Shown: positions 23,674-37,324, counted from the first letter of the stretch. The stretch: 64,000 bases of DNA from a virus (IMGVR_UViG_3300027777_000022); one strand, 5' to 3'. Notes: generated by a model from the letters alone, not told the origin. Numbers and translations: made by a program.

Positions 23674-23889
23674 TTATTTTGATTCAGCTGCTTCTAGTGC
23701 AGCAGCAGCTTCTTCCAAGAGGTCGGCGATACGGTCAGGCTTGCCTTCCTCTACACTTTTACGTGAAGTGATCTGCCGACGGATCTCTGCTCGCTTGCGC
23801 AAACGAAAGATCAAACTTTGTTCACTCACAGGCAAGTGACTTTCGTCCTTGGCCATAAGTTCTTCAAACCTGTCAAATTCTTCGTTCAT
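23674..23889 (-). CDS. hypothetical protein (71 aa), acidic
   Basis: Short ORF whose start overlaps the RNA ligase stop by 4 nt. Confidence 0.35.
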   Translation of the reverse strand: MNEEFDRFEELMAKDESHLPVSEQSLIFRLRKRAEIRRQITSRKSVEEGKPDRIADLLEEAAAALEAAESK

Positions 23890-24791
23890 ACAGTCTCCAA
23901 ATATTCACGTACCCATGCCAGGCGCTCTTGTTCGTTCAACACAGTGTACTTCACAATGTTGGAACGGATATGTTCCAGCAATGGATAGTATTCCTCGTCA
24001 ATTTGTTCCCGGAACTCTTGAGTCATCAACTTATCAGTACGAGGGTTACGTGCTACCCACTTTGCAGTTAGATAGTATGGTGATTTGATCTTGGCACTCA
24101 CACCATCTTCGGTATAGAACACAAAACCTTCGTGCTTGACACGCTTGGATTCGGCTACCAACTCACCAACAGTTATGCGATAAGATTCTACTGCATGACA
24201 CTTTACAGTATCCTGAGCAAATATCTTCCACACTGTATCACAGTCAAATCCATGCACCCGAGATTCCCAAGCGTTTTCACGCCAGCCAAGAAAGTACATT
24301 CCTGCCTTTTCTACCACAATGTGAGGGTCGCTTGGGTGTACGCATTCAAACATGAAAGTATGACCTTCATTGGAAGCTATTGCCAACACCCAATCTTCCC
24401 AGCACATGTGCTTCAACATCATTTCCTTGGCGTAGTCCACATAGTCGCTGGCAGTTGAGCCAGTTGTACTCACTAGGATATCGTTCTTGTACCAAGTCAT
24501 TGCTACCATAAAGCCATTGGCTTTGCGATAAGCAGTTACCTTTGTATCATCACTCAACACAGGAGATTTGGCTTCCACACCATAGTTGTAGATCTTTGTG
24601 AATGGCCGCGACACCACATTGAAGTCCTCATCAACGATAGTACCGCGACATTCTTCAAGAAAGTCATTCCATAGGTTGTCAAAGAACACACGCTTGGAAT
24701 ACTTTAGCACATAGATACCATCACCAGCAGGCCGCATATTAACCAACCGTGGGTTAGCTAGCACAAACTTTTTTAATTCATCTTGGTTCAT
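23886..24791 (-). CDS. rnlA: RNA ligase 1 (T4 RnlA-like)
   Basis: LEECRGTIVDEDFNVVSRPFTKIYNY parallels T4 Rnl1 [30 protein letters not shown]; nucleotidyl-lysine motif KANG. Start moved to Met 24791 because promoter -10 (24821-24826) lies inside the longer ORF. Confidence 0.65.
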   Translation of the reverse strand: MNQDELKKFVLANPRLVNMRPAGDGIYVLKYSKRVFFDNLWNDFLEECRGTIVDEDFNVVSRPFTKIYNYGVEAKSPVLSDDTKVTAYRKANGFMVAMTWYKNDILVSTTGSTASDYVDYAKEMMLKHMCWEDWVLAIASNEGHTFMFECVHPSDPHIVVEKAGMYFLGWRENAWESRVHGFDCDTVWKIFAQDTVKCHAVESYRITVGELVAESKRVKHEGFVFYTEDGVSAKIKSPYYLTAKWVARNPRTDKLMTQEFREQIDEEYYPLLEHIRSNIVKYTVLNEQERLAWVREYLETV

Positions 24792-24820
24792 AATTCTACT
24801 TGTTTTTGCTATAAGTCCAA

Positions 24821-24849
24821 ATTGTAACATCAAATGGATTACGTGTCAA
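24821..24849 (-). promoter_or_regulatory. sigma70-like promoter TTGACA-N17-TACAAT
   Basis: Minus strand: -35 TTGACA (plus 24844-24849), 17-nt spacer, -10 TACAAT (plus 24821-24826). Confidence 0.5.
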
Positions 24850-24852
24850 CAA

Positions 24853-26160
24853 CTAGATGTACATTCGATAAAGTTCGGGCAGTAGTTCATCTCCGATCAG
24901 TGCTGCAAATATGATAGGTGCAGCACTTTGTCCTTTGATGGCAAATCCCACAATTGTACCAATGATCAGTGTCAACCAAGTCAAAACAAAGTGCCCGCTA
25001 GCGTATGATTCCCATAGCATGGCCACGGTGATTATTACTAATAATATTGCTGCAATTTCTTTTTGATAGACAATGAAAAATCTCAAATGTGTATATAATT
25101 TTCCAGAAATATAAAAATTAATAAGACTCACTGCCACGCACAATGTACACAGCAAGATTGCATTATTTTTTATCAACTCAAAAGCAGTTTGTATCACAAA
25201 GCCTTTATTTTCAACCAACGATAATATTATTGCTTCTGATGGCAGAATAGGCAATCCCAATAGTAATAAAGGAATCAATGATGTTATAGCCCCTGCATTA
25301 TTTGCTGTTTCGGCTGATATAATATTATTATAATAAGTTTGCGGGTCGGATACCTGATTCAAAGTATTTCTAAATTTTTCAACTGCCTCTGCAAATGAGG
25401 AACTCAGCGCATAGCTAATGCCCGGTATTAACCCCGATAAACTTCCAACTGCTGACCCTATCATAATTGTTCCAGTAGAGTTTGTCATAACAGGAGTATC
25501 ATTGGTTTTCTGAAAACTATTCACTATCGTAGACTTGGATCTAACAATACCGGGTATAACCAAAAGTCCCATTGCAATGGGAATGATTGGTACCCCTCCA
25601 AGCTGCGCAATATAACTTGGAACAAATTGTTGCATAGACTCAATGTACCAAATAGAGCCGGTACTGATATACAATCCAACCAATGATAACGCTGTTGCTA
25701 TAATTTTATTGCCGCTCATGCCAATAAGTAGTAAGATAGCTATTACTAATACAGCTATTTTGATTTTGCCAGAAAAGAAATAAATCAGGGTCTCATAGTA
25801 TGGAATGGCACACATGAATATTCCCAGTGCAATGATTGCTCCTACAAAACTACCCAACGCAGTGCCTGCTAATATTTTTTCTTGAAGACCATATTTGGCA
25901 ATTTGAAAACCATTTTCTACTGCCGGGACAGAGGTGAATTCACCTACTACCCCAAACAAAATTGCACTCACACTACCATAGTATTGCATAGTCATCACAA
26001 CTACACAATAAAACCACATGAGCAATTGCCAGTTTGGAATTACGTGTGCAGCGGGCATCATTAAAATCAAAACTCCCGACACATTTAGTGACGGGAGCAT
26101 CCCTGCTAATATGCCCAAAAATAAAGCAATACCAGTGACGGTGACCCACCAGGTTATCAT
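24853..26160 (-). CDS. polytopic membrane protein, TctA-like (tripartite tricarboxylate transporter permease family)
   Basis: At least 10 hydrophobic spans; Gly-rich GLIPGISYALSS-type repeats; immediately upstream of a TctC-like binding protein. Confidence 0.4.
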   Translation of the reverse strand: MITWWVTVTGIALFLGILAGMLPSLNVSGVLILMMPAAHVIPNWQLLMWFYCVVVMTMQYYGSVSAILFGVVGEFTSVPAVENGFQIAKYGLQEKILAGTALGSFVGAIIALGIFMCAIPYYETLIYFFSGKIKIAVLVIAILLLIGMSGNKIIATALSLVGLYISTGSIWYIESMQQFVPSYIAQLGGVPIIPIAMGLLVIPGIVRSKSTIVNSFQKTNDTPVMTNSTGTIMIGSAVGSLSGLIPGISYALSSSFAEAVEKFRNTLNQVSDPQTYYNNIISAETANNAGAITSLIPLLLLGLPILPSEAIILSLVENKGFVIQTAFELIKNNAILLCTLCVAVSLINFYISGKLYTHLRFFIVYQKEIAAILLVIITVAMLWESYASGHFVLTWLTLIIGTIVGFAIKGQSAAPIIFAALIGDELLPELYRMYI

Positions 26161-26163
26161 GTT

Positions 26164-27078
26164 CTACTTGGCTAGTCCAATTGCTATTTCTGTTGCAATA
26201 ACACGATCTAATGTTGTTTCAGATGGAAACTTTGTAGGAGTTTGCAGTATTGAAGTTACATATTTTTTAATAGGTTCAGTTTTGAATACATCAACCAATA
26301 CTTTCCGTGCAGATGCGCTTGTTCCTGGAGGTACTGCAACATATTGTTCCAGAACCAAATCTATCTCGGTGTTGTTTTGATCTTTGACTCGTACTACCGG
26401 AATGTTAACCAATTCGTTCTTGGCTGACTGCATAATTCCAATAGAATTGTCTTCTGCTATCAGTTGATAGCAGGCTGTGCTAATACCCAAATCAACATCG
26501 GATGTTTTTAGTGCAATTCTGATAGGTCCTGCGCCACTGTAGGGCACAAAAGTTGCTTTGAGTTTTGGATTTTGTTCTTGTAGCATTCGCAAATACTTTT
26601 TACCAATTTCGCCAGCAGCAGCAATTCTAACTGGAGTGCCAGAAGTTAGCAATTCGGTTGCAGTTGTTACCTTGGCTGTTTTTGAGGCCGAGGTACACAT
26701 CACCTGAGGGGTAGACGACACCGAAGTGATCAAAGTCAATTCAACCGGCCAAGAATCTTGTTTAGGACACACAGCTAATGCCTTGGATTTGTCTGACCAA
26801 ATTGTGTCTCCACTAGTCATCATTACAACAGGTACCGTTGAATCCTTGATGCGACTTACTATTTGTAATGCTGCTGCACAGGAATTGGTAAATTGCCTAG
26901 ATACTGTATGTCCGTTTTTTTCTAGTTCAGCCGCAGCGGCATCGGTGATCATACCGGTTGAACCTCCAGGGCTAGCAAATTGTACAAACGTGATATTCTC
27001 TGCGCTAATTGATGTAGAGCCAATGAGCAGTGCCAATGGCAAAATCAGATTGCGTAGTGTGGTGTAATAAGTTTTCAT
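26164..27078 (-). CDS. TctC/Bug-family periplasmic substrate-binding protein
   Basis: Signal peptide, then ITFVQFASPGGSTGMITDAAA ... ATFVPYSGAGPI ... VAVPPGTSASARKVL, matching the TctC pattern (GGxxD, VPYxG, AP-GTP). Confidence 0.5.
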   Translation of the reverse strand: MKTYYTTLRNLILPLALLIGSTSISAENITFVQFASPGGSTGMITDAAAAELEKNGHTVSRQFTNSCAAALQIVSRIKDSTVPVVMMTSGDTIWSDKSKALAVCPKQDSWPVELTLITSVSSTPQVMCTSASKTAKVTTATELLTSGTPVRIAAAGEIGKKYLRMLQEQNPKLKATFVPYSGAGPIRIALKTSDVDLGISTACYQLIAEDNSIGIMQSAKNELVNIPVVRVKDQNNTEIDLVLEQYVAVPPGTSASARKVLVDVFKTEPIKKYVTSILQTPTKFPSETTLDRVIATEIAIGLAK

Positions 27079-27146
27079 AAGTTTCCTATTGTTAATAATT
27101 CATTGATACATAATATGTATTGGTCACCCTGTGTGGTTCACACAGG

Positions 27147-28235
27147 TCAACGTACTTGTCGAAATTTACCAAATCGTCCGTGATACTTATCGATGGATCC
27201 ATCGGGTGGCAAAAGACTGTGTCTCTTCATGTAGCTTATTATAGTTTGATCTGTTTGCATTGCAAGTAATCCGGCAATATAAGACTTAAATCTATCATCT
27301 TTTGTGTAAAAATTATTGTCACTTTTGGTTAATATGCCTACTGTGTTGACAGGATTTTTTGAAAGCCAAGTTCGCTGCAAGTATGTCAATCCAGAAATTA
27401 ATTCAGAATCTCTTCCACATGCAGTTGCCATAAAATTAGCATTGGTTATATTTTGTTCTGCAAATCTCAGTGAGTTCCATCCTTCATAAATTGGATAATT
27501 TGAGTTAATCATACTGTTCACTACCATGTGAGTTTGTTTAACATGCAACTCGATCAAGTCGGGACTTATAAAAAACCATTCAAATGCATTATTATCTAAA
27601 TGAGCATACCCTGAGTATATTTTATCCAAATGTGTACTGAACCATTTGCCACCTGAATAGTACACATGAGGTTTTTCTACTCCTAGTATTGCTGCCCATG
27701 ACTGCCCCCGCCACCTCTCAGTCCTTTCAATAATTTTAGAATGATTTGCAAGGGGACTAGGGCTATATGTGATTGCTGGGTTGATGGTCCAATCATCATT
27801 CAATCCCTTATAAGTGTCAAAATTTTCATTTCTATGATATACTGTGATGATAGTCGTGGGATCCCAATGATTGTCTTTTAACCACTTGACATTCTGTGCA
27901 GGATGTCCATGTTCATCTTGGTCATGGTAGTATATGATAATTTCATCAATATGAAGGTTCAATCTTTTGAAAGTGTTGTAAATTGTAATAGAGTCAGTGC
28001 CACCGCTGAAAAATAATACTAATCTATCATACTTGTGCCTTAGTTGGGCAGCTCTGATGTTGCACAATTCAGCAAATGACTGTGAGGGTTCTATTAACCA
28101 ATTGACAGCATCAAATTCTTCTTCCAGCAACTCAAAGTTGACTATTGTGTGAGGGGTGTGAACTGCGGCATACGAAATAGCTTGAAATGCGTTTATAAAT
28201 TTGTTATGGTCAGTGGACCAAATTGGATTTTTCAT
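27147..28235 (-). CDS. PP-loop superfamily ATP pyrophosphatase (QueC/TilS/AsnB-like); specific function unresolved
   Basis: LVLFFSGGTDSITI (SGGxDS PP-loop); no QueC-type C-terminal Cys cluster. Confidence 0.5.
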   Translation of the reverse strand: MKNPIWSTDHNKFINAFQAISYAAVHTPHTIVNFELLEEEFDAVNWLIEPSQSFAELCNIRAAQLRHKYDRLVLFFSGGTDSITIYNTFKRLNLHIDEIIIYYHDQDEHGHPAQNVKWLKDNHWDPTTIITVYHRNENFDTYKGLNDDWTINPAITYSPSPLANHSKIIERTERWRGQSWAAILGVEKPHVYYSGGKWFSTHLDKIYSGYAHLDNNAFEWFFISPDLIELHVKQTHMVVNSMINSNYPIYEGWNSLRFAEQNITNANFMATACGRDSELISGLTYLQRTWLSKNPVNTVGILTKSDNNFYTKDDRFKSYIAGLLAMQTDQTIISYMKRHSLLPPDGSIDKYHGRFGKFRQVR

Positions 28236-28246
28236 GCTATATTTAA

Positions 28247-28465
28247 TCAGCGTCCCAAAGTTTCAATTCGTTTCAGCAAGGCCTGTGCTCCGCACAGTTG
28301 CGTATCCAGCGCATCAATGGCAGCCCGATAGTTTGCTGGAATGTGTTTGGTATGGTACATGCGCTGATGTGCCTGCCCGGCGATTTTGACAGAGCTCATG
28401 GACCATTCCAACAACTCTACCTCACGCTGGGCTTTTTCCAGCACTGACAATTCTTTATCAGACAT
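28247..28465 (-). CDS. hypothetical protein (72 aa)
   Basis: Short ORF in operon context. Confidence 0.3.
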   Translation of the reverse strand: MSDKELSVLEKAQREVELLEWSMSSVKIAGQAHQRMYHTKHIPANYRAAIDALDTQLCGAQALLKRIETLGR

Positions 28466-28466
28466 T

Positions 28467-28970
28467 TCATTCTCCTACTATTCTGCGGGCACGAGCCATC
28501 AATGTGGCGTCACCGCGGGTCAATACCGCCAACAACATGCGTTTCTCCGCCAAGTAGATCTTGGCAAAAGCAGGGTCATGTGTCATGATGCTGCCACTGT
28601 TGGCGATCAAGTCAGCCAATTTCACAGTTTGTGCAGCAGCAGGTGCCATTGCAATATGCTCACGGTCTCGGGCCTTGCGAACAGCTCTGTTGCCATCTTC
28701 TGGCTGGCTGACATCAGTTAACCAGCTGACTAAAGACGCAACTTCGTGTCCAAATTCACGAGTGATGTCCACAATGGTAACACCAGTGTCTTCCACTGTG
28801 TCATGCAACCAGGCAGCAGCCAACATCACGTCGGTGTGTGGCACACTGGCAACAATGTTGGCAACTTCGGTAGGATGCACAATGTACGGCTCAAAGGTGT
28901 ACTTGCGCACTTGCTTGACCGCAGCATGGGCAGCAGTGGCAAATACTCGGGCTCGTTCTACTATTGTCAT
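28467..28970 (-). CDS. HD-domain phosphohydrolase, RelA/SpoT (ppGpp hydrolase)-like
   Basis: HPTEVANIV...AAWLHDTVEDTGVT...FGHEVASLV matches the HD motif of SpoT/Mesh1 hydrolase domains. Confidence 0.55.
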   Translation of the reverse strand: MTIVERARVFATAAHAAVKQVRKYTFEPYIVHPTEVANIVASVPHTDVMLAAAWLHDTVEDTGVTIVDITREFGHEVASLVSWLTDVSQPEDGNRAVRKARDREHIAMAPAAAQTVKLADLIANSGSIMTHDPAFAKIYLAEKRMLLAVLTRGDATLMARARRIVGE

Positions 28971-29031: not shown

Positions 29032-29577
29032 TTAGTGATGCCCTTTGATTGCACCCTTCAAGCCAAGTCGAATTGCTTCGTCCATGGCAATGGCAATTGC
29101 ACCAGTAGAATCCATGCCCACATCCACAGCACGATACTTTTCTAAGCCACTTGTACCACCGTGCAAGTGACCGTGCAAGTGAACAGCGCCGTGATGCATC
29201 TGATCCCATTCTGCAATAGGATAGTGAAACATCACAACTTTGGTTTCGTTGAACTGCACATCCAGATACTTGTGGACTTCTCGAAAACATGCACGGAACA
29301 CATTATCCTGCAGGGTTTTGCGGTCGTGATTGCCTTCGATCAGGATCTTGGTGCCGTTGCAGCGATTCATGTATTCTGCTGCTTTGGCAGCTGGCAAGAA
29401 TGCCACGTCGCCCAGAATGTACACAGTGTCTTCAGGAGCAATCATGGCATTCCATTCGATCACCATTTGTTCGTTCATGTATGCAACGTCGTTGCGAAAC
29501 CGCGCCCGTGTTACAGGGCAAAAACTCATGATGTTCTTGTGCCCAAAATGTAAATCAGATGTTACCCAAGTTTTCAT
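29032..29577 (-). CDS. calcineurin-like metallophosphoesterase
   Basis: TSDLHFGH, ILGDVAF, GNHD and LHGHLHGG motifs; start moved to MKTWV (29577). Confidence 0.7.
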   Translation of the reverse strand: MKTWVTSDLHFGHKNIMSFCPVTRARFRNDVAYMNEQMVIEWNAMIAPEDTVYILGDVAFLPAAKAAEYMNRCNGTKILIEGNHDRKTLQDNVFRACFREVHKYLDVQFNETKVVMFHYPIAEWDQMHHGAVHLHGHLHGGTSGLEKYRAVDVGMDSTGAIAIAMDEAIRLGLKGAIKGHH

Positions 29578-29578: not shown

Positions 29579-29830
29579 TTATTTCTTCTTTGTTCTTCCA
29601 ATTCGTGATGCCTTGTTCCAGGTGTATGCCACACCATCCGGAGTCCGGCCATCCATCACACTATCCACACCAGGTTTGCCCACATGGTCAGGATCTTCAG
29701 ATACCATGGTAACAAAGATCATGCCCAGCTTGCGAAAGGCCTCGGTATACTTCAATGCTTCGTTCAATGTAACGGCATTGTGTGCATGTGACCAATCAGT
29801 TACAGGATCTGTGTAATATATTTTAAACAT
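29579..29830 (-). CDS. hypothetical protein (83 aa)
   Basis: ORF directly downstream of promoter 29836-29864; predicted transcription start at or near the ATG, so possibly leaderless. Confidence 0.4.
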   Translation of the reverse strand: MFKIYYTDPVTDWSHAHNAVTLNEALKYTEAFRKLGMIFVTMVSEDPDHVGKPGVDSVMDGRTPDGVAYTWNKASRIGRTKKK

Positions 29831-29835
29831 GATTC

Positions 29836-29864
29836 ATTATACTGCATGGACCATGAGTAGTCAA
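29836..29864 (-). promoter_or_regulatory. sigma70 consensus promoter TTGACT-N17-TATAAT
   Basis: Minus strand: -35 TTGACT (plus 29859-29864), 17-nt spacer, -10 TATAAT (plus 29836-29841). Confidence 0.55.
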
Positions 29865-29885
29865 CCTGGTGTGGCAGAATTACAA

Positions 29886-30010
29886 CTATACCAAAAGTTC
29901 TTGATATTCTTCTTGACCACAGCCGCATTCAGGGCATGTGAAACCATCGGGCAACAAGTCCCAAGCGCCTTCAGTAGCTTCATCGTGGACATGGCCACAT
30001 ACTACACAAA
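29886..30010 (-). CDS. rubredoxin-like zinc-ribbon mini-protein (about 41 aa)
   Basis: Not in the ORF track. Translation MKHVCVVCGHVHDEATEGAWDLLPDGFTCPECGCGQEEYQELLV has two CxxCG knuckles. ATG overlaps the rubrerythrin stop. Confidence 0.4.
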
Positions 30011-30019
30011 CATGTTTCA

Positions 30020-30469
30020 TTACAGGTTCTCCAGTTGTTGTTGATATGCTGCTGCATGACGCTGTTCAATCTTGGTCAGTGCTGCAAACCGTTTTTCAGC
30101 CTTGGCCAGCACCGCAGCAAATTGCTCTGCATGCTGTTTCGATTCTGCAATCTGACTATCAGCTTCGATCACAGCACGAGCATTGTGCTCATGTTCAGCT
30201 GCTCTGCGGAATTCTGGATACATGGTTTCAAACTCGTAAGTTTCTCCTTCAATGGCCCGGACCAGGCACTCCCGGGTTGAGGGCTTGCCGATCAGCAGTT
30301 CTAAGTGTGCCCAGGCATGCAACAATTCTTGATCAGCTGTGTGTTCAAAGTGCTGTGCCACTTGTTCGTGGCCTTCGGCACGAGCAATTTTTGCAAAGTA
30401 ACGATACTTGATGTGTGCTTGGCTTTCTCCAGACAATGCACTTTCTAAGTTTTTGATTGTGAGTGACAT
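30020..30469 (-). CDS. rubrerythrin / ferritin-like diiron protein
   Basis: Paired E-x-x-H motifs (AEGHEQVAQHFEH ... EFRRAAEHEHNARA). Start set to MSLTIKN, which has AAGGAG 7 nt upstream. Confidence 0.55.
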   Translation of the reverse strand: MSLTIKNLESALSGESQAHIKYRYFAKIARAEGHEQVAQHFEHTADQELLHAWAHLELLIGKPSTRECLVRAIEGETYEFETMYPEFRRAAEHEHNARAVIEADSQIAESKQHAEQFAAVLAKAEKRFAALTKIEQRHAAAYQQQLENL

Positions 30470-30547
30470 GTTTTCTCCTTGGTTGTCAAGTGTAAGTATA
30501 TAGCGTTTGCAACCTATGTGTCGATGTATTTTCATAGGATTTTGCTA

Positions 30548-30937
30548 TTAAAATTTTATATCCTCATCATAGGGTTCTACTGTCCACCCGATAGAAAATA
30601 AATCTTGACGGATCTCATCTGTGACGGTACTTTCGCTTACGTAGTGTTTTGTGCTAAACACATCATCATTTCCCAACCCGCTAGCAATACCGCTACAGTA
30701 CCAGTCCATGTAGTCGCCCTTGTTCCGCAAGCGGGCAATGATACCACCAGCATAGCGCCAACTGCATGACCATGTTAGATCTGCAAGTCTAGGCCACACA
30801 TCGTTTTTTTGGAAAACATTGTTGCACATGGCCGCATAGAGATTCTGTGCGTATGTATCGCCATCAATTACTTTTGTTACTATCCATTCACATGCAACAA
30901 TATCTTCTTCAAGATTATTGTCCGGATCGTCTCTCAT
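30548..30937 (-). CDS. hypothetical protein (129 aa)
   Basis: ORF, no motif. Confidence 0.45.
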   Translation of the reverse strand: MRDDPDNNLEEDIVACEWIVTKVIDGDTYAQNLYAAMCNNVFQKNDVWPRLADLTWSCSWRYAGGIIARLRNKGDYMDWYCSGIASGLGNDDVFSTKHYVSESTVTDEIRQDLFSIGWTVEPYDEDIKF

Positions 30938-31137
30938 TGCAAGATACGTGGCTCATCAAGAAGACCAGCTTGCACATGGTCTGGGAGATCCGCAACATCA
31001 ACTGGTCTGCTTTGTGCAGCAAGTTCTTCGGGGGTCATGGATTCAAACATTTCTTCAAGTTCTGCTATCAAAGCATCCAATTCTTCCTGGGTGCCGTCGA
31101 AGTCATCAAACGCTCCGGGTGCAAATTGTACTTTCAT
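30934..31137 (-). CDS. hypothetical acidic protein (67 aa)
   Basis: Short ORF; stop/start overlap with downstream gene. Confidence 0.35.
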   Translation of the reverse strand: MKVQFAPGAFDDFDGTQEELDALIAELEEMFESMTPEELAAQSRPVDVADLPDHVQAGLLDEPRILQ

Positions 31138-31309
31138 AATGTATCCTTGTGATAAATTGGTGGGATGTTTTGTTGGACCCTCCGGACTCGAACCGGAACC
31201 TTACAAATTATGAGTTTGCGGCACTAACCATTATGCTAGAGTCCAACAAAACACCCTTTCCTATATTGTGTGTGTGGATGCTGTCAACTTTCATAATATT
31301 ACTTATCAG

Positions 31310-31588
31310 CTACTGCTGTTCTTTGTTCAACGTAGCTTCCAGCTGTCGAATCAATTGACGCACCGAGTCAGGCCCCATGGTCAATGTAGTTGTGCCGTAA
31401 TTGATCTTTAGTACCAGCTGTGTGTTACCTGCTTGATTCAGTCCAACTGTATACAAAGCATCTGCGTTCTTATCAATAACAGGAGTTGATACTGCCTGGG
31501 TTTCATCAACCGGACATGTACCAGCATCATTGATATCTTGATCAACCTTGTTGGCAATTTGCCGTTTACGCCATCCAAACATATCCAA
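31310..31588 (-). CDS. hypothetical protein (92 aa)
   Basis: ORF, no motif. Confidence 0.4.
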   Translation of the reverse strand: MDMFGWRKRQIANKVDQDINDAGTCPVDETQAVSTPVIDKNADALYTVGLNQAGNTQLVLKINYGTTTLTMGPDSVRQLIRQLEATLNKEQQ

Positions 31589-31600
31589 CTCCTATTGTGA

Positions 31601-32398
31601 TTACTTAGGCATCATTAGTGCGTTGAAGTTACTTGGAACAACAATGGTCTGAACTTTGCCAGTCTTGATACCTTCGGAAATATTCAACATGGCCTGAGCT
31701 TGCATGAATGCAATTGAGCTGCCGCTGTTGTTGGCCAGTGCTGCCATACGACGGGATTCAGCTTCAGCAGTCTTGACTTCAATTTCCTTCTGCTTTAGCT
31801 CGTTCTTGGATTTAACCAATTCATTAGCACTTGCCACAACCGAATCTGCCGGAACAATGTTACGAATCAACACTTGACTGATGGTGATGCTACCATCCAA
31901 CTTTTCTTCGGTAAGGTTGCGAATGATCTCTTCCTTGATAAAGTTTTCCATATCGCTACGGGCATCTGCCATATCCAGAGCCTCATGCTTACGAGCAGCC
32001 TTGTAGATGGCGTTACGAGCGTTCTGCACAATGTAGTTGTACATCACGTATGTGTCGCCCTTGAACTCGGCGTGGAAGCTCTTGTTCTTGGTTGAATACA
32101 ATTCACTTACTTGCTGGGGATTGATGTTGTAAACAACCACGGCGTCAAAATCTTTCATGGTTGAGTTGTCTTTGGCAACAGGAGTCATGTCGTTAAGTGA
32201 TACATTAACGTCCTTGACTGGAAAGGTTAGAACTTCCCCAATGATTGATTGGTTGAAACTACCAGGCAACAGTTCGCCGCTTTGAACTTGCTTATCAAAT
32301 CCAATTCGTACACCCACTTCACCAGTTTCAATACGAGTACATGCAGATGTTAGTGCAACTGCGGCGGCAATAAAAGAAAGTTTAATAACACGATTCAT
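31601..32398 (-). CDS. SPFH/Band-7 (prohibitin/HflK-like) domain lipoprotein
   Basis: Lipoprotein signal ...ALTSAC, SPFH-like core and C-terminal coiled coil (KNELKQKEIEVKTAEAESRR). Confidence 0.55.
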   Translation of the reverse strand: MNRVIKLSFIAAAVALTSACTRIETGEVGVRIGFDKQVQSGELLPGSFNQSIIGEVLTFPVKDVNVSLNDMTPVAKDNSTMKDFDAVVVYNINPQQVSELYSTKNKSFHAEFKGDTYVMYNYIVQNARNAIYKAARKHEALDMADARSDMENFIKEEIIRNLTEEKLDGSITISQVLIRNIVPADSVVASANELVKSKNELKQKEIEVKTAEAESRRMAALANNSGSSIAFMQAQAMLNISEGIKTGKVQTIVVPSNFNALMMPK

Positions 32399-32493
32399 TT
32401 AGATAAATCCAGTGGAAAAAAGATAAAAACACATAACAAAACCCAACACGAAATACAAAGGCCTAAGCCAACGATCATTAATCATACAACACC

Positions 32494-32676
32494 TTAGAAT
32501 AAAATCACAAGCACTGTCATCAACATCACTGCTGCCAGTGATACAAGTATACTATACCCTATGCTTTTTGTCAAGGCCAATTGTTCCAAGCCGTTCATAT
32601 TTCTCAAAGCAGTAATGCCAAAGTGTATCAAACCGGCAAGGATAGCAAACGCAACCCAAAGTTTAATCATATTCAT
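32494..32676 (-). CDS. small membrane protein (60 aa)
   Basis: Two hydrophobic helices; promoter 32695-32723 immediately upstream. Confidence 0.35.
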   Translation of the reverse strand: MNMIKLWVAFAILAGLIHFGITALRNMNGLEQLALTKSIGYSILVSLAAVMLMTVLVILF

Positions 32677-32694
32677 CCTTTGTTAAAAAAACAT

Positions 32695-32723
32695 ACTATA
32701 GCATTGTTACAAATAGCCGTCAA
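32695..32723 (-). promoter_or_regulatory. sigma70-like promoter TTGACG-N17-TATAGT
   Basis: Minus strand: -35 TTGACG (plus 32718-32723), 17-nt spacer, -10 TATAGT (plus 32695-32700). Confidence 0.45.
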
Positions 32724-32858
32724 CCTCTGCTAATGCAGCAGTTTCTGCCACAGCATACACCAAATCCACTGACACTTTCAGCATACCAGCAACGGTCACT
32801 GGTCGGTATCCTTGCTCCAACAGAGATTCAATCTCTGCAATTATTTCTTTCATCTTGC

Positions 32859-33770
32859 TCATTTGTTGTCCTTTTTGTCGGGTAGTAAAAATTCTCGTAC
32901 TCTTGGTAATTCAAACAGCATGGCAGGCAGTTGATCCACAGGAAACCGTTTCAAAATTGACTCTGGTTCCCAGGACAAACTTTCACCTTCGACAAATTTG
33001 AATCCTCGGCTTTTATGCAGTTGATGTCCTTTATTTGGTGCATGTGCATATGATGCACTTTTGGTTTGATTCCTTGCATCTCCGCCCATCCAACTGAAAT
33101 GCCATCCAAACTCATCAAATATGTTTCCATCTATGGTGGGAGTAATTATCTGTGCAGGCACATGATATTTGCAACGAATACGATGCGGAGTTGATTGGCT
33201 GATAATGGATTTTTTACAAATACTCATAGCGGTACGCCAAACAAATGGCCACCCTGCACGAGCATATGGTCGCAGGTCGGCCCTACCATACAGATTGATC
33301 AAGGGCAATTTTACCACACAATCAGGATGGTTGCGAGCTATATTCAACGCAAATCCAATATGGTCTGGATTGATAATCTCATCACAGTCACTCATCAAGA
33401 TCCAGTCATTATCATCGAACATGTAAAGTACCTTCTGCAATGCATTGCGTTGAATGCGATCTCTGGCCACAGCTTTGATAGATTCTATATCTGCACGATC
33501 CTCAGGGAACTGTGCATTAAAGTCATGCTCTTCTAATTTTAAATCAAGATCATCAGCCATTTGCACTTCGACCACAGTGATTTTTTCTGCAGGAAGTCCC
33601 AGCTCTTTAATCAAGTTTTTCAACTGATACTGTCTAGGAATAGCAGTGTGTGTCATATTGGATTCTGAAATCACAAAATGATCCACATGATCTTTCAGTA
33701 AATTGATCCTGAATTCCAACAACTCACGCTCGTTGAAATAGGGAAAATAATCAATAAGTTGATTGGTCAT
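32859..33770 (-). CDS. glycosyltransferase family 17-like
   Basis: YFPYFNERELLEFRINLLKDHVDHFVISES fits the GT17 N-terminal signature (F-N-E-ldlLe-Rl..l...VD-FvivEs). Confidence 0.4.
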   Translation of the reverse strand: MTNQLIDYFPYFNERELLEFRINLLKDHVDHFVISESNMTHTAIPRQYQLKNLIKELGLPAEKITVVEVQMADDLDLKLEEHDFNAQFPEDRADIESIKAVARDRIQRNALQKVLYMFDDNDWILMSDCDEIINPDHIGFALNIARNHPDCVVKLPLINLYGRADLRPYARAGWPFVWRTAMSICKKSIISQSTPHRIRCKYHVPAQIITPTIDGNIFDEFGWHFSWMGGDARNQTKSASYAHAPNKGHQLHKSRGFKFVEGESLSWEPESILKRFPVDQLPAMLFELPRVREFLLPDKKDNK

Positions 33771-33785: not shown

Positions 33786-34250
33786 TCAACCGGCATTCCA
33801 CACCTCTGTGTATCCTTCTTCCACAGTTGGTTCTTCCCAACCTGCGATCATACCACGCATGACATGATCAGGAATGTTCTTGCCCGGCCGGCTGGCCAGT
33901 CGACGAGCCAATTCTTCTGGTTCAGGAGTCTTAAACACCACAGCAATATGTTCGTAGTTGGGCAACATGCGGAACTTCTTCTTGCGGCTTTTGACTGTGG
34001 TCGAGGTCTGATCCCAGATCACAGTATGTCCGTGCTCACGTGCAAATACAACTTGTTCAGTCATCAAGTCCACAGCCGTGGGCATGTATTCCTTGAACAC
34101 TTCGTTGTAGGTTTTACCTTGTTTATGGGCATACGCTTCAACAAAATTGTCCGTAGAAACTATAGTCAACCCCAACGCCCAGTCTTGATCTCGAATCCAG
34201 GTGCTTTTGCCTGCGCCCGGCACTCCTACTAATACGTAAACTTTTGGCAC
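33786..34250 (-). CDS. P-loop polynucleotide kinase-like protein (T4 Pnk kinase-domain-like, no phosphatase domain)
   Basis: GVPGAGKSTWIRD Walker A; VIWDQTSTT and RPGKNIPDHVMRGM parallel the T4 Pnk kinase domain. Confidence 0.5.
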   Translation of the reverse strand: MPKVYVLVGVPGAGKSTWIRDQDWALGLTIVSTDNFVEAYAHKQGKTYNEVFKEYMPTAVDLMTEQVVFAREHGHTVIWDQTSTTVKSRKKKFRMLPNYEHIAVVFKTPEPEELARRLASRPGKNIPDHVMRGMIAGWEEPTVEEGYTEVWNAG

Positions 34251-34359: not shown

Positions 34360-34554
34360 TCATTCTTCAACTCCGAAATGTTTCAACAAAAATTCTAAAT
34401 CGGGATGACCATTATGAAACGCTTTATCAATACATTCCCTCACAATCAACTCGGCGAACTTTTCTAATTCATCTGTGTAGAATTGATATACGCAAAGGTT
34501 CTGTTTGTGTGTAGATCCAGCCTGTTCAGCAAGTTTTCGAATTCGTTCGTTCAT
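34360..34554 (-). CDS. small protein, member of a 3-gene paralog family
   Basis: Shares ...FAELIVRECIDKA...HFGVEE with the adjacent gene. Confidence 0.4.
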   Translation of the reverse strand: MNERIRKLAEQAGSTHKQNLCVYQFYTDELEKFAELIVRECIDKAFHNGHPDLEFLLKHFGVEE

Positions 34555-34745
34555 TCTTCAACTCCGAAATGTTCTCTAATCTCTTCGTAAATGTCCAATG
34601 CATCATGGTCGGCGGCAACATTGGCACATTCCCGCACAATTAACTGGGCAAACCGTTCAACATTAAGCCAATCTTCAAGTTCATACTGTGCTTGCCCATC
34701 CCAACAGGCTTTGTTGAGAAATTTTTGTATTAGTTCTTTGTTCAT
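34551..34745 (-). CDS. small protein, member of a 3-gene paralog family
   Basis: FAQLIVRECANVA...REHFGVEE; tandem duplicate of 34360..34554. Confidence 0.4.
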   Translation of the reverse strand: MNKELIQKFLNKACWDGQAQYELEDWLNVERFAQLIVRECANVAADHDALDIYEEIREHFGVEE

Positions 34746-34960
34746 TCTACATGTCCTAGCGTTTGAGGGCTGTGATCCAATCGATCCATGTTATCACCGT
34801 GATAGAAGAATGCGTCTGGATCCGTTATTGTAACACACAAATCGCTATGGGTCAAGTCATAGTCCACAAAGTCTGTGCCATTGTACACACGGAAAAAATA
34901 CTTGCCCTCAAAGGAACGAAGAAGGTGGCCTTTGACTCCATCTGCTGACGTTGGTTTCAT
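34742..34960 (-). CDS. hypothetical protein (72 aa)
   Basis: ORF in operon context. Confidence 0.35.
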   Translation of the reverse strand: MKPTSADGVKGHLLRSFEGKYFFRVYNGTDFVDYDLTHSDLCVTITDPDAFFYHGDNMDRLDHSPQTLGHVE

Positions 34961-35160
34961 TCTTGTCTCCTGTACAAGGCATCGCCTAGTTCTTGCTCCA
35001 GGCGGTCGATACGGTATTCATACCGATCAGTGATCCGAGCCACTTCATCTTCTGCACTTGAAAGTTCTTCTTGTAGATAGGTGATTTGTCCACGCAACCG
35101 AATAATCTCTTGTTCAAGCTCAAATATCTTTTCTCGTCGTGGATCTTCATCCTCGTTCAT
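34957..35160 (-). CDS. hypothetical coiled-coil protein (67 aa)
   Basis: ORF in operon context. Confidence 0.35.
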   Translation of the reverse strand: MNEDEDPRREKIFELEQEIIRLRGQITYLQEELSSAEDEVARITDRYEYRIDRLEQELGDALYRRQE

Positions 35161-35398
35161 TTTTTAACCCAGATGTTTTTGCATCATGCAATTCACCATA
35201 TCCAAATTCCAACTGAATCCATTGACGATCTAACTCATCGCTCCAGTCTCGGTCTCCGGTGTAGTAAGCACGTTCCTTGACCTCATCCAACACAGCCTCA
35301 ACAACCAACTTGGCAAACTTTTCTAGTGTTTCGCCGCCAACCATGGGATAGTGACTGCCGCCTGCTTGCAATGCAATTTCGTAAATTCGTTTGTTCAT
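35147..35398 (-). CDS. small protein, third member of paralog family
   Basis: LEKFAKLVVEAVLDEV parallels FAELIVRECIDKA. Confidence 0.35.
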   Translation of the reverse strand: MNKRIYEIALQAGGSHYPMVGGETLEKFAKLVVEAVLDEVKERAYYTGDRDWSDELDRQWIQLEFGYGELHDAKTSGLKNERG

Positions 35399-35757
35399 TA
35401 TTTGTTCTTGGTTAGATCTTTGAGATTGAGCACTTCTTCTTTCAGCTTTTTGTTCTCGCGCTTGAGATTTCTATTCTCGTGCTGCGCCCAGCCTTCTTTT
35501 TCATGTGCTTTGCGCAAGGCCAACAACTCGTCGGCTTCAATGATTCGCAGGTCCTTGTCGGGAAAGATCATCAATTTACCATTGTCCCAATCAAATCCTG
35601 ATTGCATGTTCTTGATATTGACACAGGGCGTACCACCAGCGGATCCTGCAGTCTTTACCACAACAACAACATTAACTCCTTCGGGAGTAGGATAGTTGTG
35701 ACGCAATTGACTTTCGTATAGCCAATCAACTTGTTCTTTAAGTTCTTTAAGATTCAT
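35398..35757 (-). CDS. hypothetical protein (119 aa)
   Basis: ORF in operon context. Confidence 0.4.
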   Translation of the reverse strand: MNLKELKEQVDWLYESQLRHNYPTPEGVNVVVVVKTAGSAGGTPCVNIKNMQSGFDWDNGKLMIFPDKDLRIIEADELLALRKAHEKEGWAQHENRNLKRENKKLKEEVLNLKDLTKNK

Positions 35758-35956
35758 TTTGTTTTTGCTCTTTCATAATCACAATAATTTATGTTTGCTT
35801 TTGCAACAGTGCCAAAAACTCGTCCATTCGAGCCAATTGCATGTGATGCAGATACATGTACAGTCGAGTCTCTACAGGCCAGGAACCAAATGCACTTACC
35901 ACCCAGCCCGGTACTGTTTCTTCCAGTTGTGCAACATATTCTTCAACGCTCACGAT

Positions 35957-36298
35957 TTACTCCTTGTGCCAATTGCCTTGCAAACAATGCAAGAACTCAT
36001 GCCCGGCCATACGCATGTCCACTTTCTCGGGCAGGATCATGGTACAACGATCCTGTTGATACCATGTGCATGCCAGTGCCCCTTTGGGAAATCCATTGAA
36101 TCCAAACTTGCGACTTTGCGCATCACAAGCAGCTTGGATCTCCGAAGCCTTGACATAACTTATGTCCAACTGTGTTCGGTTGGTGAGATTCTGCCGCATG
36201 TCAAACACACGGCCAGGCGAGTTATCAAAATTCCATTGTGCATGCACCGTGCTTGCAAGCAAAGTTATTGCAACAGATAAAGCAATATTTTTCAACAT
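35957..36298 (-). CDS. small secreted protein with HExxH zinc-metallopeptidase-like motif
   Basis: N-terminal signal peptide (MLKNIALSVAITLLASTVHA) and HEFLHCLQGNWH. Confidence 0.35.
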   Translation of the reverse strand: MLKNIALSVAITLLASTVHAQWNFDNSPGRVFDMRQNLTNRTQLDISYVKASEIQAACDAQSRKFGFNGFPKGALACTWYQQDRCTMILPEKVDMRMAGHEFLHCLQGNWHKE

Positions 36299-36301
36299 AA
36301 A

Positions 36302-37324
36302 TTATTTTTCTCCCAGCAGATACCGGTTAGAGATAGCCTTGAAAGTCATTCCACCACCCACTTGCTTGAACACAATACCTTCACGTTCTGGTCCAGTGAT
36401 ATCACCCATGACAGATTTGCCTTCGGCAAACTGTAGAATTTCTTCAACAGCGCCTGTGCCAAGATTCCTGTCAGTGTGCAGCACAGGAACATGCAGCAGT
36501 CCCATCTTCTCAACAAGAGCTCGACGGAATGCAGGAGAGATGTACCCGCCGCCAAACACGTCGTACACATCAAACACACAAAACTCTGGCTGGGTCAACC
36601 GGTAGATATTGCCTTGAATGCCGGGGCCGATCAGTTCACCTTGGATAGCAACATCCTTGTCACCAAACAGATTGCGGATCTTGTCTTCGATGTTGTCACG
36701 ACGTGCAACAGACCAGAATGTGTTACCTTCGGTTTCCTTAAGGTCCAGGTTGCGAGAGCAAACACCAAACTCACCATCGATCAAGTACACAGTCATTGAA
36801 GAGCCTTCCAGCTTTTCAGTAACTTCAAACTCAGCGCCTGTTTCAGCGGCAGCACGGATTTCCGCAACAAGATTCTGAGCACGTTCCTGGTCAGTCTTGG
36901 GAATCTCAGAAGGGAAGTTACCCTTGGCCAGGCCAGCCAACTGTGCATTCATAGGCATTTCCCACTTCACAATGCCCAGCAGTTCAGACACATCTTCACC
37001 TTCAGTGAAAGAATTTGTTTGTGGAATAACATCATCAAGATTCAGCAGCAGACCTTGGCTCAGTTGGCCTCGTAGCTTTACAGTACGCAGACGTTCACCG
37101 CGGATGCCTTCAAACTCGCGAGGCTCCTTGCCCTTGCTTAGGAAAGCAGCAATCTCAGTGGGAATCCAAGAGTCAATCTCGCAATACACTGCACGGTCGC
37201 CCGTCTTGAACTCGCCCTTCTTTACCACTACCTTCCATCCACCAATGGTAGCGCACTCAATTGCATCTGCACCCTCAATGGGATTCAGCGCATCAATCAC
37301 ACGGATAGTTGCCATCTTACGCAT
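36302..37324 (-). CDS. ATP-dependent RNA ligase, Rnl5/DraRnl-like with N-terminal OB/tRNA-binding-like domain
   Basis: N-terminus IRVIDALNPIEGADAIE...VKLRGQLSQGLLL (tRNA-binding/OB-like). Nucleotidyltransferase motifs TEKLEGSS (KxxG) and EGIVFK (motif V). Confidence 0.55.
   Translation of the reverse strand: MRKMATIRVIDALNPIEGADAIECATIGGWKVVVKKGEFKTGDRAVYCEIDSWIPTEIAAFLSKGKEPREFEGIRGERLRTVKLRGQLSQGLLLNLDDVIPQTNSFTEGEDVSELLGIVKWEMPMNAQLAGLAKGNFPSEIPKTDQERAQNLVAEIRAAAETGAEFEVTEKLEGSSMTVYLIDGEFGVCSRNLDLKETEGNTFWSVARRDNIEDKIRNLFGDKDVAIQGELIGPGIQGNIYRLTQPEFCVFDVYDVFGGGYISPAFRRALVEKMGLLHVPVLHTDRNLGTGAVEEILQFAEGKSVMGDITGPEREGIVFKQVGGGMTFKAISNRYLLGEK

Follow-up and report, generated by a model that had tools for sequence, protein, structure and literature searches.

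The window, a 64,000-nt stretch of DNA from an uncultured freshwater phage, carries a set of genes for putative RNA-repair enzymes, all intact and all on the minus strand (Table 1). ORF translations confirmed the coordinates and strand of the four genes reported in the first-pass annotation (two RNA ligases, a kinase and a phosphoesterase); a gene for a RelA/SpoT-type HD hydrolase, 61 bp from that of the phosphoesterase, was absent from that annotation. Homologues of each of these four ORFs number from hundreds to thousands and retain the catalytic residues, so that chance ORFs can be dismissed. For the metallophosphoesterase (MPE) gene, the coordinates are further matched by the gene that JGI called on a near-identical contig. 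A very large tRNA gene set had been noted as well, and ARAGORN indeed detected 34 tRNA genes, with all 20 amino acids represented. The kinase, MPE, HD and Rnl1-like ligase genes lie in the order Kin-MPE-HD-Rnl1 and are spread over 10.4 kb, with intervening unrelated cargo of 3.5-4.2 kb. The cargo between the ligase and HD genes consists of a transporter of the TctA family, a protein with a signal peptide, an unassigned 362-aa protein and a 72-aa ORF. Between the MPE and the kinase, Pfam matches revealed a rubrerythrin, a Band 7/SPFH protein and a glycosyltransferase resembling family 17, next to small ORFs and the tRNA-Met gene.

Table 1. Putative RNA-repair genes and surrounding features of the window
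Feature	Position	Strand	Remarks
Rnl1-like ATP-dependent RNA ligase	23886..24791	-	301 aa from ATG; short-C-module clade, motif I KANG
RelA/SpoT-type HD hydrolase, small-alarmone-hydrolase (SAH)-like	28467..28970	-	167 aa; PF13328 HD_4
Stand-alone binuclear metallophosphoesterase, aq_1665-like subfamily	29032..29577	-	181 aa; PF00149, phrog_547
Stand-alone polynucleotide-5'-kinase-like P-loop kinase, no phosphatase domain	33786..34250	-	154 aa, GTG start
Rnl5-family (DraRnl/NgrRnl-type) ligase	36302..37324	-	340 aa; N-terminal OB and C-terminal nucleotidyltransferase domain
33-gene tRNA array	5521..22397	-	ARAGORN; context, possible substrates or back-ups
34th tRNA gene, tRNA-Met	31172-31245		ARAGORN; within repair region
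Cargo between ligase and HD genes	24853..28465	-	Outside repair set; HD abuts Rnl1 in compact relatives
TctA-family transporter	24853-26160		PF01970, E 4e-38
Cargo between phosphoesterase and kinase genes	29579..33770	-	Outside repair set; Kin abuts MPE in compact relatives

The ORF of the Rnl1-like ligase reaches a TTG at 24833 (23886-24833); the ATG at 24791 is likely the true start, because the homologues are ~300 aa long and begin with MNK..LK. The protein matched PF09511 with an E value of 3.5e-14 (53.6 bits against a cutoff of 28.3), and hhalign aligned it with T4 RnlA at a probability of 97% and an E value of 9e-11. The motifs ECRG, SRPF and K-A-N-G, on which the first-pass annotation had based an Rnl1 type like T4 RnlA, are all present. 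The equivalents of the essential T4 Rnl1 residues R54, K75, K99, G102, E159, E227, G228, K240 and K242 are invariant in the clade, and the N-terminal sub-domain (Arg54, Lys75) together with motifs I, III, IV and V identifies an adenylyltransferase domain of the T4 Rnl1 type. However, the likeness does not extend to T4 RnlA as a whole. Motif I is KANG or KVNG with an invariant Asn instead of KxDG, a Thr replaces Lys119 of motif Ia in 71/71 clade members, and the score against the T4 RnlA equivalog TIGR02308 was 44.5 bits, far below the cutoff of 242. In T4 Rnl1, the all-helical C-terminal domain (aa 255-374) confers tRNA specificity, and it is such appended domains that define ligase families (PMC6379707). 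The corresponding module in the window ligase comprises only ~63 aa, which align with both ends of the T4 domain, compared to 120 aa in T4. By these sequence features, the Rnl1-like ligase falls into a separate clade of phage enzymes, marked by an invariant KxNG, a Lys119-to-Thr change and a short C-module.

KxNG is also the motif I of fungal Trl1 (Rnl6; PMC6379707), which raises the alternative that the phage ligase acts like Trl1 and needs a 2'-PO4 at the 3'-OH end. The MPE would then act as a cyclic phosphodiesterase and leave a 2'-phosphate, as does a CthPnkp mutant that yields only 2'-NMP from the cyclic phosphate, and another enzyme, perhaps the MESH1-like HD protein, would clear it; MESH1 itself, a relative of the HD protein, is reported to dephosphorylate NADPH (PMC9765508). 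We consider this very improbable. The ligase profiles match T4 Rnl1 only and not Trl1, the C-module aligns with T4 as described above, and of the RxxR element that serves 2'-PO4 use in Trl1, just one Arg is conserved across the clade. Furthermore, searches of the window for Tpt1/KptA and for a 2H phosphoesterase found neither.

The kinase belongs to PF13671 (AAA_33, E 1e-19). The P-loop residues Lys15/Ser16, the general base Asp35 and the lid residue Arg126 of T4 Pnk have invariant counterparts across 59 kinase homologues, all of which carry Val or Ile in place of T4 Arg38, the residue that contacts the 3' phosphate of the substrate. Both the sequence and the predicted structure were closest to polynucleotide kinases, in agreement with the proposed resemblance to the T4 Pnk kinase domain, and the fold was more distant from NMP, shikimate and gluconate kinases. 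These comparisons speak against a generic NMP or shikimate kinase. The 154-aa protein consists of the kinase domain only, so that the Pnk phosphatase domain is missing, as had been noted.

The MPE was recognised by PF00149 and phrog_547 (E 7e-52). Its binuclear metal motifs DxH, GD, GNH(D/E), H and GHxH are all present, and D8, H10, G56-D57, G82-N83-H84-D85, H118 and G136-H137-x-H139 are invariant in 16 diverse homologues. A profile search of the PDB returned aq_1665 (1xm7, E 7e-25) and, weakly, GpdQ, with no match to lambda-Pase or CthPnkp; where PPP/lambda-Pase enzymes have the signature GDxxDRG, the MPE has GDVAF. These features place it in the uncharacterised aq_1665 subfamily and not in the lambda-Pase/Pnkp type. 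Binuclear metallophosphoesterases such as CthPnkp and lambda-Pase are able to hydrolyse 2',3'-cyclic phosphates (PMC2190708). The MPE had been proposed to supply the healing step missing from the kinase, as in Pnkp/Hen1-type systems. Such a replacement of the missing phosphatase is supported indirectly by the conserved synteny and the fusion proteins described below, which make the MPE a candidate enzyme for healing RNA ends with a 2',3'-cyclic phosphate or 3'-phosphate. Compared to the Clostridium thermocellum Pnkp/Hen1 and the Pnkp1-Rnl-Hen1 systems, the window proteins are separate, the MPE shows no detectable sequence relation to the Pnkp phosphatase, and the window contains no Hen1 methyltransferase.

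The HD hydrolase is a single-domain protein that matched PF13328 (HD_4; E 2.9e-15, 56.7 bits against a cutoff of 27.2) and TIGR00691 (E 1.7e-22). Among known structures, it matched the Rel hydrolase domain (5xnx, E 1.4e-15) as well as MESH1 and SAH, and the catalytic residues H32, H56-D57 and E60-D61 (LHDTVED) are present.

We examined the linkage of these genes in 27 IMG/VR loci that were anchored on Rnl1 and extended for at least 5 kb to either side, counting neighbours within 5 kb on the same strand. The MPE was such a neighbour in 26 of the 27 loci, at a median gap of 863 bp; the corresponding numbers were 14 for the kinase and 10 for the HD gene. Because the loci are phylogenetic kin, the counts do not represent independent events. 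At least three of the four genes occurred together in 57 loci and in nine different orders, the commonest of which, Kin-MPE-HD-Rnl1, is also that of the window; many of these loci span 1.9-3.5 kb, so the genes are contiguous there. Clusters were also seen in distant cultured phages. In rV5, MPE-AAA_33 adjoins Rnl1, Ralstonia RSP15 has the order HD-AAA_33-Rnl1-..-MPE, the repair genes are clustered in Acidovorax ACP17, and Pakpunavirus PaSzW-1 has the order HD-x-MPE-xxx-Rnl1-ATPase. The neighbouring ATPases of rV5, ACP17 and RSP15 are all AAA_33 proteins, and in Caulobacter Cr30 an RNA ligase is directly followed by the closest cultured homologue of the window kinase. The HD gene is a neighbour of the MPE in both ACP17 and Pakpunavirus, and of the kinase in the RSP15 cluster. 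In addition, the ten long members of the ligase clade include seven AAA_33-ligase fusions and two AAA_33-Metallophos-ligase triple fusions; the MPE domain of the triple fusions is of the PPP type, a different subfamily, with which the window MPE aligns only over the GD..GNHD core. A new finding of this comparison is that, in related phages, the genes of the kinase, the phosphoesterase and the Rnl1-like ligase are tightly linked as a cassette, of which the HD hydrolase is a frequent fourth member.

These data bear on the possibility that the genes are unrelated early or auxiliary genes sharing one accessory region. In that case, the MPE would be either a protein phosphatase or a phosphodiesterase acting on nucleotides or cyclic oligonucleotides, and the HD protein would hydrolyse ppGpp to help in taking over the host. 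The kinase would act on NMPs or other small molecules, and the Rnl1-like protein would serve to attach tail fibres, as T4 gp63 does. T4 RnlA is indeed annotated with a second role in tail-fibre attachment, and transport, redox and glycosyltransferase genes are interspersed in the window. The MPE family, moreover, is widespread in phages without an Rnl1 match: its members were present in 1444 phage records, many of them from Herelleviridae and crAss-like phages, as opposed to 857 records with Rnl1-like matches, and is therefore not exclusive to ligase-bearing phages. However, an accidental assembly is hard to reconcile with tight linkage that recurs in nine arrangements of the genes and in five or more distant lineages of cultured phages, with kinase-ligase and kinase-MPE-ligase fusion proteins, with a kinase fold closest to polynucleotide kinases, and with ligase catalytic residues that are all strictly conserved. 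We regard unrelated genes as unlikely.

The region is thus probably a spread-out, conserved cassette for RNA end healing and sealing, accompanied by an unlinked second ligase. The family assignments, the intact catalytic residues, the linkage and the domain fusions were observed directly, and from them we infer the substrates and the order of the steps. The MPE, possibly aided by the adjacent HD hydrolase, would remove a cyclic or 3' phosphate and leave a 3'-OH, the Pnk-like kinase would phosphorylate the 5'-OH, and the Rnl1-like ligase would close the break through the usual lysyl-AMP and AppRNA steps. The overall logic would be that of T4 Pnkp and Rnl1, with the bifunctional Pnkp split into a kinase gene and a phosphoesterase gene of different families. 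Several features weigh against this reading: the kinase has no counterpart of T4 Arg38, the ligase lacks Lys119 and the full T4 C-domain, the MPE is neither of the lambda-Pase/Pnkp type nor of the subfamily seen in the triple fusions, its family extends to phages without Rnl1 matches, and cargo separates the genes in the window. A role against anticodon nucleases would follow from the standard reasoning on such enzymes.

The second ligase aligned with NgrRnl (5cot) over residues 1-337 with an E value of 5e-88 and ~50% identity across its full length. It contains the PF21189 OB domain (residues 4-95, E 1.5e-28) and PF09414 (residues 165-329, E 2.8e-29), the same OB and nucleotidyltransferase architecture as NgrRnl/DraRnl, here in a phage setting. 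The sequence features that had suggested this family, the N-terminal VKLRGQLSQGLLL, KLEG and EGIVFK in a protein of 340 aa, were all recovered. It also passed the DRB0094 equivalog TIGR02306 of NCBIfam (196.7 bits against a cutoff of 151.15). A DNA ligase or an mRNA capping enzyme was rejected on the basis of this score and the full-length NgrRnl match. Judged by the residues highlighted in NgrRnl mutant structures, the equivalents of K170, E227, E312, K326, R149, R4 and K121 are conserved, and only D172 is changed. The change to Glu is conservative, and 66 of the 77 phage Rnl5 homologues share it (KLEG rather than KLDG). Enzymes of the Rnl5 family seal 3'-OH/5'-PO4 nicks in a Mn2+-dependent manner and require a ribonucleotide 3'-OH strand, an activity that is predicted for the window enzyme. 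It would seal such nicks within duplex RNA or RNA:DNA as a separate enzyme, comparable to T4 Rnl2, and may serve RNA or DNA repair; it may also act on the same healed ends as the Rnl1-like ligase. Rnl5 was near Rnl1 in just 1 of the 27 IMG/VR loci and is an unlinked second ligase outside the cassette.

The T4 system, in which Pnkp (PseT) and Rnl1 (RnlA) repair tRNA against the anticodon nuclease PrrC and Rnl2 is also present, resembles the window in having a 5' kinase, 3' healing, an anticodon-loop-type ligase and a second, nick-sealing ligase; the kinases share the fold and K15, S16, D35 and R126. In contrast, the phosphatase of T4 Pnkp is a HAD/DxDxT domain, as opposed to the separately encoded metallophosphoesterase and/or HD protein of the window, the T4 Rnl1 C-domain and Lys119 have no full counterpart in the short KxNG ligase, and the second ligase is Rnl2 in T4 but Rnl5 here.

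Closer counterparts are found in Pakpunavirus (Adele, PaSzW-1) and the rV5-like Vequintavirinae, which share an AAA_33 kinase without a phosphatase domain, a short Rnl1-like ligase, an aq_1665-like MPE and an HD/SAH protein, clustered within ~4 kb; Pakpunavirus also has a tRNA cluster and encodes a second ligase at another location, as does the window. The window differs in that cargo stretches the cassette, and the protein identities are just 28-37%. The kinase-only Pnk and two ligases of Adele have been read as a tRNA-repair system with a missing 3'-phosphatase, and that description does not tie the phosphoesterase or the SAH to the pathway (PMC12846349). For some jumbo phages, a part in RNA repair has been proposed for phosphatases of the calcineurin-like and HD-like kinds (PMC7824862). 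The concept of a repair kit is thus already published for jumbo phages and Pakpunavirus. The window set resembles a dispersed version of a cassette that many phages carry, and is therefore a real but fairly ordinary feature that shows no new principle by itself. It adds an uncultured freshwater phage to those in which two ligases accompany a split healing system of the Pnkp kind. The linkage or fusion of the kinase, the aq_1665-type MPE and the short Rnl1-like ligase extends across many lineages, including the tractable rV5 and Pakpunavirus, and offers the MPE as a concrete candidate for the missing 3'-phosphatase of the Pakpunavirus literature.

Phages are known to use RNA repair as a counter-defence, and further defences that target tRNA continue to come to light, among them PrrC, RloC, PARIS, retron-linked nucleases, Cas13 and toxSAS. 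A possible RNA-end role is suggested for phage HD hydrolases as well. The HD protein may repair tRNA 3' ends by stripping the CCA-end pyrophosphate added by toxSAS (CapRel, FaRel2, PhRel), while the kinase, MPE and ligase mend anticodon-loop breaks. Its intact RelA/SpoT-type hydrolase domain and its embedding in the RNA-repair cassette of many lineages are consistent with this idea. Some small alarmone hydrolases undo toxSAS tRNA pyrophosphorylation (bioRxiv 10.1101/2021.04.30.441581), and PaSpo, an SAH encoded by Salmonella phage SSU5, neutralises the toxicity of toxSAS (PMC9712102). However, the HD gene is found in just about a third of the Rnl1 loci, and free (p)ppGpp and (p)ppApp are also substrates of this fold (PMC12846349), so that its presence can be explained without a link to tRNA. 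We therefore regard tRNA 3'-end repair as possible but doubtful. Equally tentative is the wider proposal that the cassette is a multi-lesion tRNA repair module with this HD activity, or that the HD protein is the missing 2'/3'-phosphomonoesterase acting after the MPE. If true, either version would provide the first function for the aq_1665 MPE subfamily and an RNA-end function for phage alarmone-type hydrolases.

In HD-Pnk enzymes, namely Runella slithyformis HD-Pnk and the Pnk of Rhodothermus phage RM378, an HD phosphoesterase and a Pnk-type kinase are paired to heal RNA ends. Their HD domains are of the CCA-enzyme/poly(A)-polymerase-associated type and fused to the kinase, whereas the window HD protein is of the RelA/SpoT (HD_4) type and separate. 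The HD, kinase and ligase genes of RSP15 stand in a row, similar to the HD-Pnk pairing. The window kinase itself matches the C-terminal half of an RM378 gene annotated as 'probable poly A polymerase', which we take to be the characterised RM378 Pnk.

Nearly all transcription in the window, which is gene-dense, phage-like DNA, runs from the minus strand. ORF calls and translations showed that the two RNA ligases, the kinase and the stand-alone phosphoesterase named in the first-pass annotation are present as described. The longest ORF of the first ligase starts at TTG 24833; its homologues have ~300 aa and start at the equivalent of ATG 24791. The phosphoesterase start (29577) and the kinase GTG start (34250) match the JGI gene calls on near-identical metagenome contigs, whose samples we take, from their sample numbers, to be lake metagenomes. 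The window's relatives were IMG/VR and JGI contigs, and the phage has no close cultured relative: the complete region, searched by megablast, had no match among 50,697 phage records. A 99%-identical kinase is present on a 348-kb contig, and the window phage may therefore be a jumbo phage.

Features of the window discussed in the text
Feature	Position	Strand	Remark
SAM methyltransferase	3351-3962
tRNA array	5.5-22.4 kb		33 tRNA genes
tRNA-Ile(TAT)	14234-14325	-	92 nt, anticodon position 31 (ARAGORN)
HAD-nucleotidylyltransferase fusion	18117-19493	-	in tRNA array
Asn-Tyr tRNA pair	20359-20544	-
Asn-Tyr tRNA pair	21344-21513	-
First ligase (Rnl1-like)	23886-24791	-
TctA-family transporter subunit and signal-peptide protein	24853-27078	-	PF01970, E 4e-38 for the transporter
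SGGxDS-motif protein	27147-28235	-	362 aa
HD hydrolase	28467-28970	-	167 aa
Phosphoesterase	29032-29577	-	181 aa
Rubrerythrin	30020-30535	-
Outlying tRNA gene	31172-31245
Kinase	33786-34250	-	154 aa
Second ligase (Rnl5)	36302-37324	-
SAM synthetase	44836-45957
QueE-like radical SAM protein	46196-47143	-
SAM methyltransferase	47056-47847
QueD/PTPS	51413-51892	-
GTP cyclohydrolase I	52373-53164	-
Family B DNA polymerase	61107-63773

The first ligase was assigned to Pfam RNA_lig_T4_1 and PHROG 562, with T4 Rnl1 as its only sequence-level relative in the PDB. Nine essential residues (R54, K75, K99, G102, E159, E227, G228, K240 and K242 in T4 numbering) were invariant in 71 homologues. The earlier description as an Rnl1 type thus holds at the family level, but the likeness to T4 RnlA does not extend to equivalence: the ligase scored 44.5 bits against the T4 RnlA equivalog, far under the cutoff of 242. 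The clade differs invariantly from T4 in motif I (KxNG, also found in fungal Trl1; PMC6379707), in Lys119 (Thr) and in Phe77 (Tyr). After motif V there are ~63 helical residues, as opposed to 120 in T4; the profile-profile alignment with full-length T4 RnlA ended at T4 residue 260, and a MAFFT alignment suggests that the short C-terminal module matches the start and the end of the T4 C-domain and lacks its middle. The invariant differences, the low equivalog score and the short module led us to name the enzyme Rnl1-like and to assign it to a distinct short clade. A Trl1-type RxxR 2'-phosphate site after motif V was also considered and set aside, being conserved in the MAFFT alignment in close relatives only and not clade-wide. 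The clade also occurs in rV5-like phages, Pakpunavirus, RSP15, ACP17 and many uncultured phages. The RefSeq name of ORF097 of Ralstonia phage RSP15 (NC_030948; locus L001, 5031-5966), "metallophosphoesterase", is wrong; the protein is an Rnl1-like RNA ligase with 37% identity to the window ligase (E 9e-56).

The second ligase is, from its sequence, unambiguously an Rnl5 enzyme, as previously proposed. It aligned end to end with the Naegleria gruberi RNA ligase (NgrRnl; 5cot) with ~50% identity (E 5e-88), contains the Pfam OB (PF21189) and nucleotidyltransferase (PF09414) domains, and scored 196.7 bits, compared with a curated cutoff of 151, against the NCBIfam model for which Deinococcus DR_B0094 was the basis. 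Of the residues targeted by mutation in the NgrRnl structures, R4, K121, R149, K170, E227, E312 and K326 are kept; the sole exception is D172, which is replaced by Glu, the majority state (66/77 phage homologues). The alignment, domains, score and residues therefore identify it as neither a DNA ligase nor an mRNA capping enzyme.

The kinase is an AAA_33 P-loop kinase (Pfam) whose best solved relatives by sequence were the T4 Pnk kinase domain and Pnkp1, and whose best NCBIfam matches were the kinase domains of bacterial Pnkp and eukaryal PNK-3'Pase. K15, S16, D35 and R126 (T4 numbering) were invariant, and R38 was replaced by Val/Ile. These matches and invariant residues therefore place it among Pnk-type rather than generic NMP kinases. 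It also matched the C-terminal half of a Rhodothermus phage RM378 gene annotated as "probable poly A polymerase", presumably the characterised RM378 Pnk.

The stand-alone protein described as a calcineurin-type phosphoesterase indeed has all the metal-binding motifs of binuclear metallophosphoesterases, invariant across diverse homologues. However, its subfamily is that of Aquifex aq_1665 (profile E 7e-25), a structural-genomics protein without an assigned function, and its profile gave no match to lambda-Pase or to the phosphatase of CthPnkp. A gene absent from the first-pass list lies 61 bp downstream and encodes a single-domain RelA/SpoT-type hydrolase (HD), which matched HD_4 (E 3e-15), Rel hydrolase domains (E 1e-15), and MESH1 and small alarmone hydrolase (SAH) structures. 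Some SAHs strip the 3'-pyrophosphate put on tRNA by toxSAS defence enzymes (bioRxiv 10.1101/2021.04.30.441581), and one phage SAH neutralises toxSAS toxins (PMC9712102). The substrates of the window HD protein could be (p)ppGpp or (p)ppApp, pyrophosphorylated tRNA, or 2'/3'-phosphate RNA ends, though we consider action on RNA ends of either kind unlikely.

We retrieved 160 IMG/VR loci, each anchored on a relative of one ligase or the other, and mapped relatives of all window proteins there. Of the Rnl1 loci, 27 had flanks of at least 5 kb in both directions; in these, the phosphoesterase lay within 5 kb on the same strand in 26 (median gap 863 bp), the kinase in 14, the HD hydrolase in 10 and Rnl5 in one. 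At least three of the four cassette genes (kinase, phosphoesterase, HD and Rnl1) occurred together in 57 loci in nine gene orders, of which kinase-phosphoesterase-HD-Rnl1, the order of the window, was the commonest (17 loci). Many of these cassettes span 1.9-3.5 kb, so their genes are directly adjacent. The window cassette measures 10.4 kb because of cargo, namely 4.2 kb between kinase and phosphoesterase (rubrerythrin, a Band 7 protein, a glycosyltransferase and tRNA-Met) and 3.5 kb between HD and ligase (the TctA transporter and others). Within 5 kb of Rnl5, in 34 loci with full flanks, the kinase was found in 13, the phosphoesterase in six and HD in one; Rnl5 is not part of the cassette.

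Two of the cargo genes are auxiliary genes. The TctA gene, for the membrane subunit of a tripartite tricarboxylate transporter, is an unusual transport gene for a phage; it is followed by a 304-aa signal-peptide protein without a family match, and in relatives a TctA-like gene has another position within the cassette. The rubrerythrin gene is an oxidative-stress gene, and a small rubredoxin-like ORF was called beside it on the near-identical contig L168.

The cassette association recurs across distant cultured phages. The phosphoesterase and an AAA_33 ATPase adjoin Rnl1 in rV5; the order is HD-AAA_33-Rnl1-..-phosphoesterase in Ralstonia RSP15, HD-x-MPE-xxx-Rnl1-ATPase (MPE, phosphoesterase) in Pakpunavirus PaSzW-1 and HD..kinase-x-phosphoesterase in Sinorhizobium phiN3. 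In Caulobacter Cr30 the gene immediately after an RNA ligase encodes the kinase's closest cultured homologue, and Acidovorax ACP17 also has the association. HD accompanies the other three genes in many phage lineages. When bacterial and archaeal species were scanned, with one genome for each, cellular cassettes appeared on two MAG contigs only, which are probably binned phage DNA.

Fusions were sought with the ligase profile among 1.84 billion cluster representatives, and 10 long homologues were scanned with Pfam. Seven were AAA_33-ligase fusions and two were AAA_33-Metallophos-ligase triple fusions, the metagenome proteins P0360 (745 aa) and P0372 (812 aa). Their domain order is Pnkp-like, but the ligase belongs to the short Rnl1-like clade and not to Rnl4. 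The phosphoesterase domain is of the PPP (GDxxDRG) type and not of the aq_1665 type; the triple fusions thus support the pathway logic, not orthology.

The best-supported reading is a heal-and-seal pathway like that of T4, in which separate enzymes take the place of the bifunctional Pnkp. The phosphoesterase, possibly with HD, would turn 2',3'-cyclic or 3'-phosphate ends into 3'-OH, the kinase would make the 5'-phosphate, and the Rnl1-like ligase would seal the break. Opening of 2',3'-cyclic phosphates is an activity known from binuclear metallophosphoesterases (PMC2190708). The repair interpretation as a whole is supported, with refinements. The inclusion of Rnl5 was its least secure element: members of the family seal duplex nicks whose 3'-OH strand is RNA, and their uncharted physiological role could extend to DNA repair (PMC5397189). 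The window Rnl5 parallels T4 Rnl2.

Other candidate repair parts were rejected. The HAD protein, considered as a T4-like 3'-phosphatase, is a fusion protein that joins a beta-phosphoglucomutase-family HAD with a sugar-1-phosphate nucleotidylyltransferase and belongs to sugar-nucleotide metabolism, not RNA repair. The two SAM methyltransferases, considered as Hen1, gave generic small-molecule methyltransferase matches and no Hen1 model. No Pfam or NCBIfam match to Tpt1/KptA, 2H phosphoesterase, RlaP or CCA-adding nucleotidyltransferase, or RtcB was found in ~70 window ORFs. The 362-aa protein had no match in Pfam, PHROGs, NCBIfam or the PDB; in relatives it is often close to the ligases, several related contigs encoding weakly similar proteins (26-46% identity) in the neighbourhood of Rnl1 or Rnl5. 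By eye it has an SGGxDS PP-loop motif (FFSGGTDS), cf. ATP-pyrophosphatase-type tRNA/nucleotide-modifying enzymes.

In a comparison of jumbo phages, RNA ligases were accompanied by polynucleotide kinases and phosphoesterases, and in a few the phosphatase was apparently calcineurin-like or HD-like (PMC7824862). For Pseudomonas phage Adele (2025), tRNA repair was proposed from a kinase-only Pnk and two RNA ligases beside 17 tRNA genes; the missing 3'-phosphatase domain was noted and an SAH listed separately (PMC12846349). The concept is thus already published, and the window cassette is a diverged, dispersed further case. Our analysis contributes linkage counts and fusions that connect the aq_1665-type phosphoesterase with the pathway, HD as a recurrent fourth member, and a first ligase that is no T4 RnlA equivalent.

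ARAGORN called 34 tRNA genes, among which each of the 20 amino acids is represented. tRNA-Asn(GTT) and tRNA-Tyr(GTA), anticodon classes targeted by colicin E5-type and retron-linked nucleases, have two copies each; the copies are ~63% identical and are therefore divergent isoacceptor versions, not recent duplicates. Given its unusual length and geometry, tRNA-Ile(TAT) may be atypical, may contain an intron or may have been miscalled. The three tRNA-Met(CAT) genes differ strongly from one another; an initiator or a lysidine-dependent tRNA-Ile could be among them. The window also has a 7-deazaguanine (preQ0-type) biosynthesis set (QueE-like, QueD/PTPS and GTP cyclohydrolase I), which suggests that bases of DNA or tRNA are modified, and near it lie the SAM synthetase and several B12-binding/radical SAM and methyltransferase genes.
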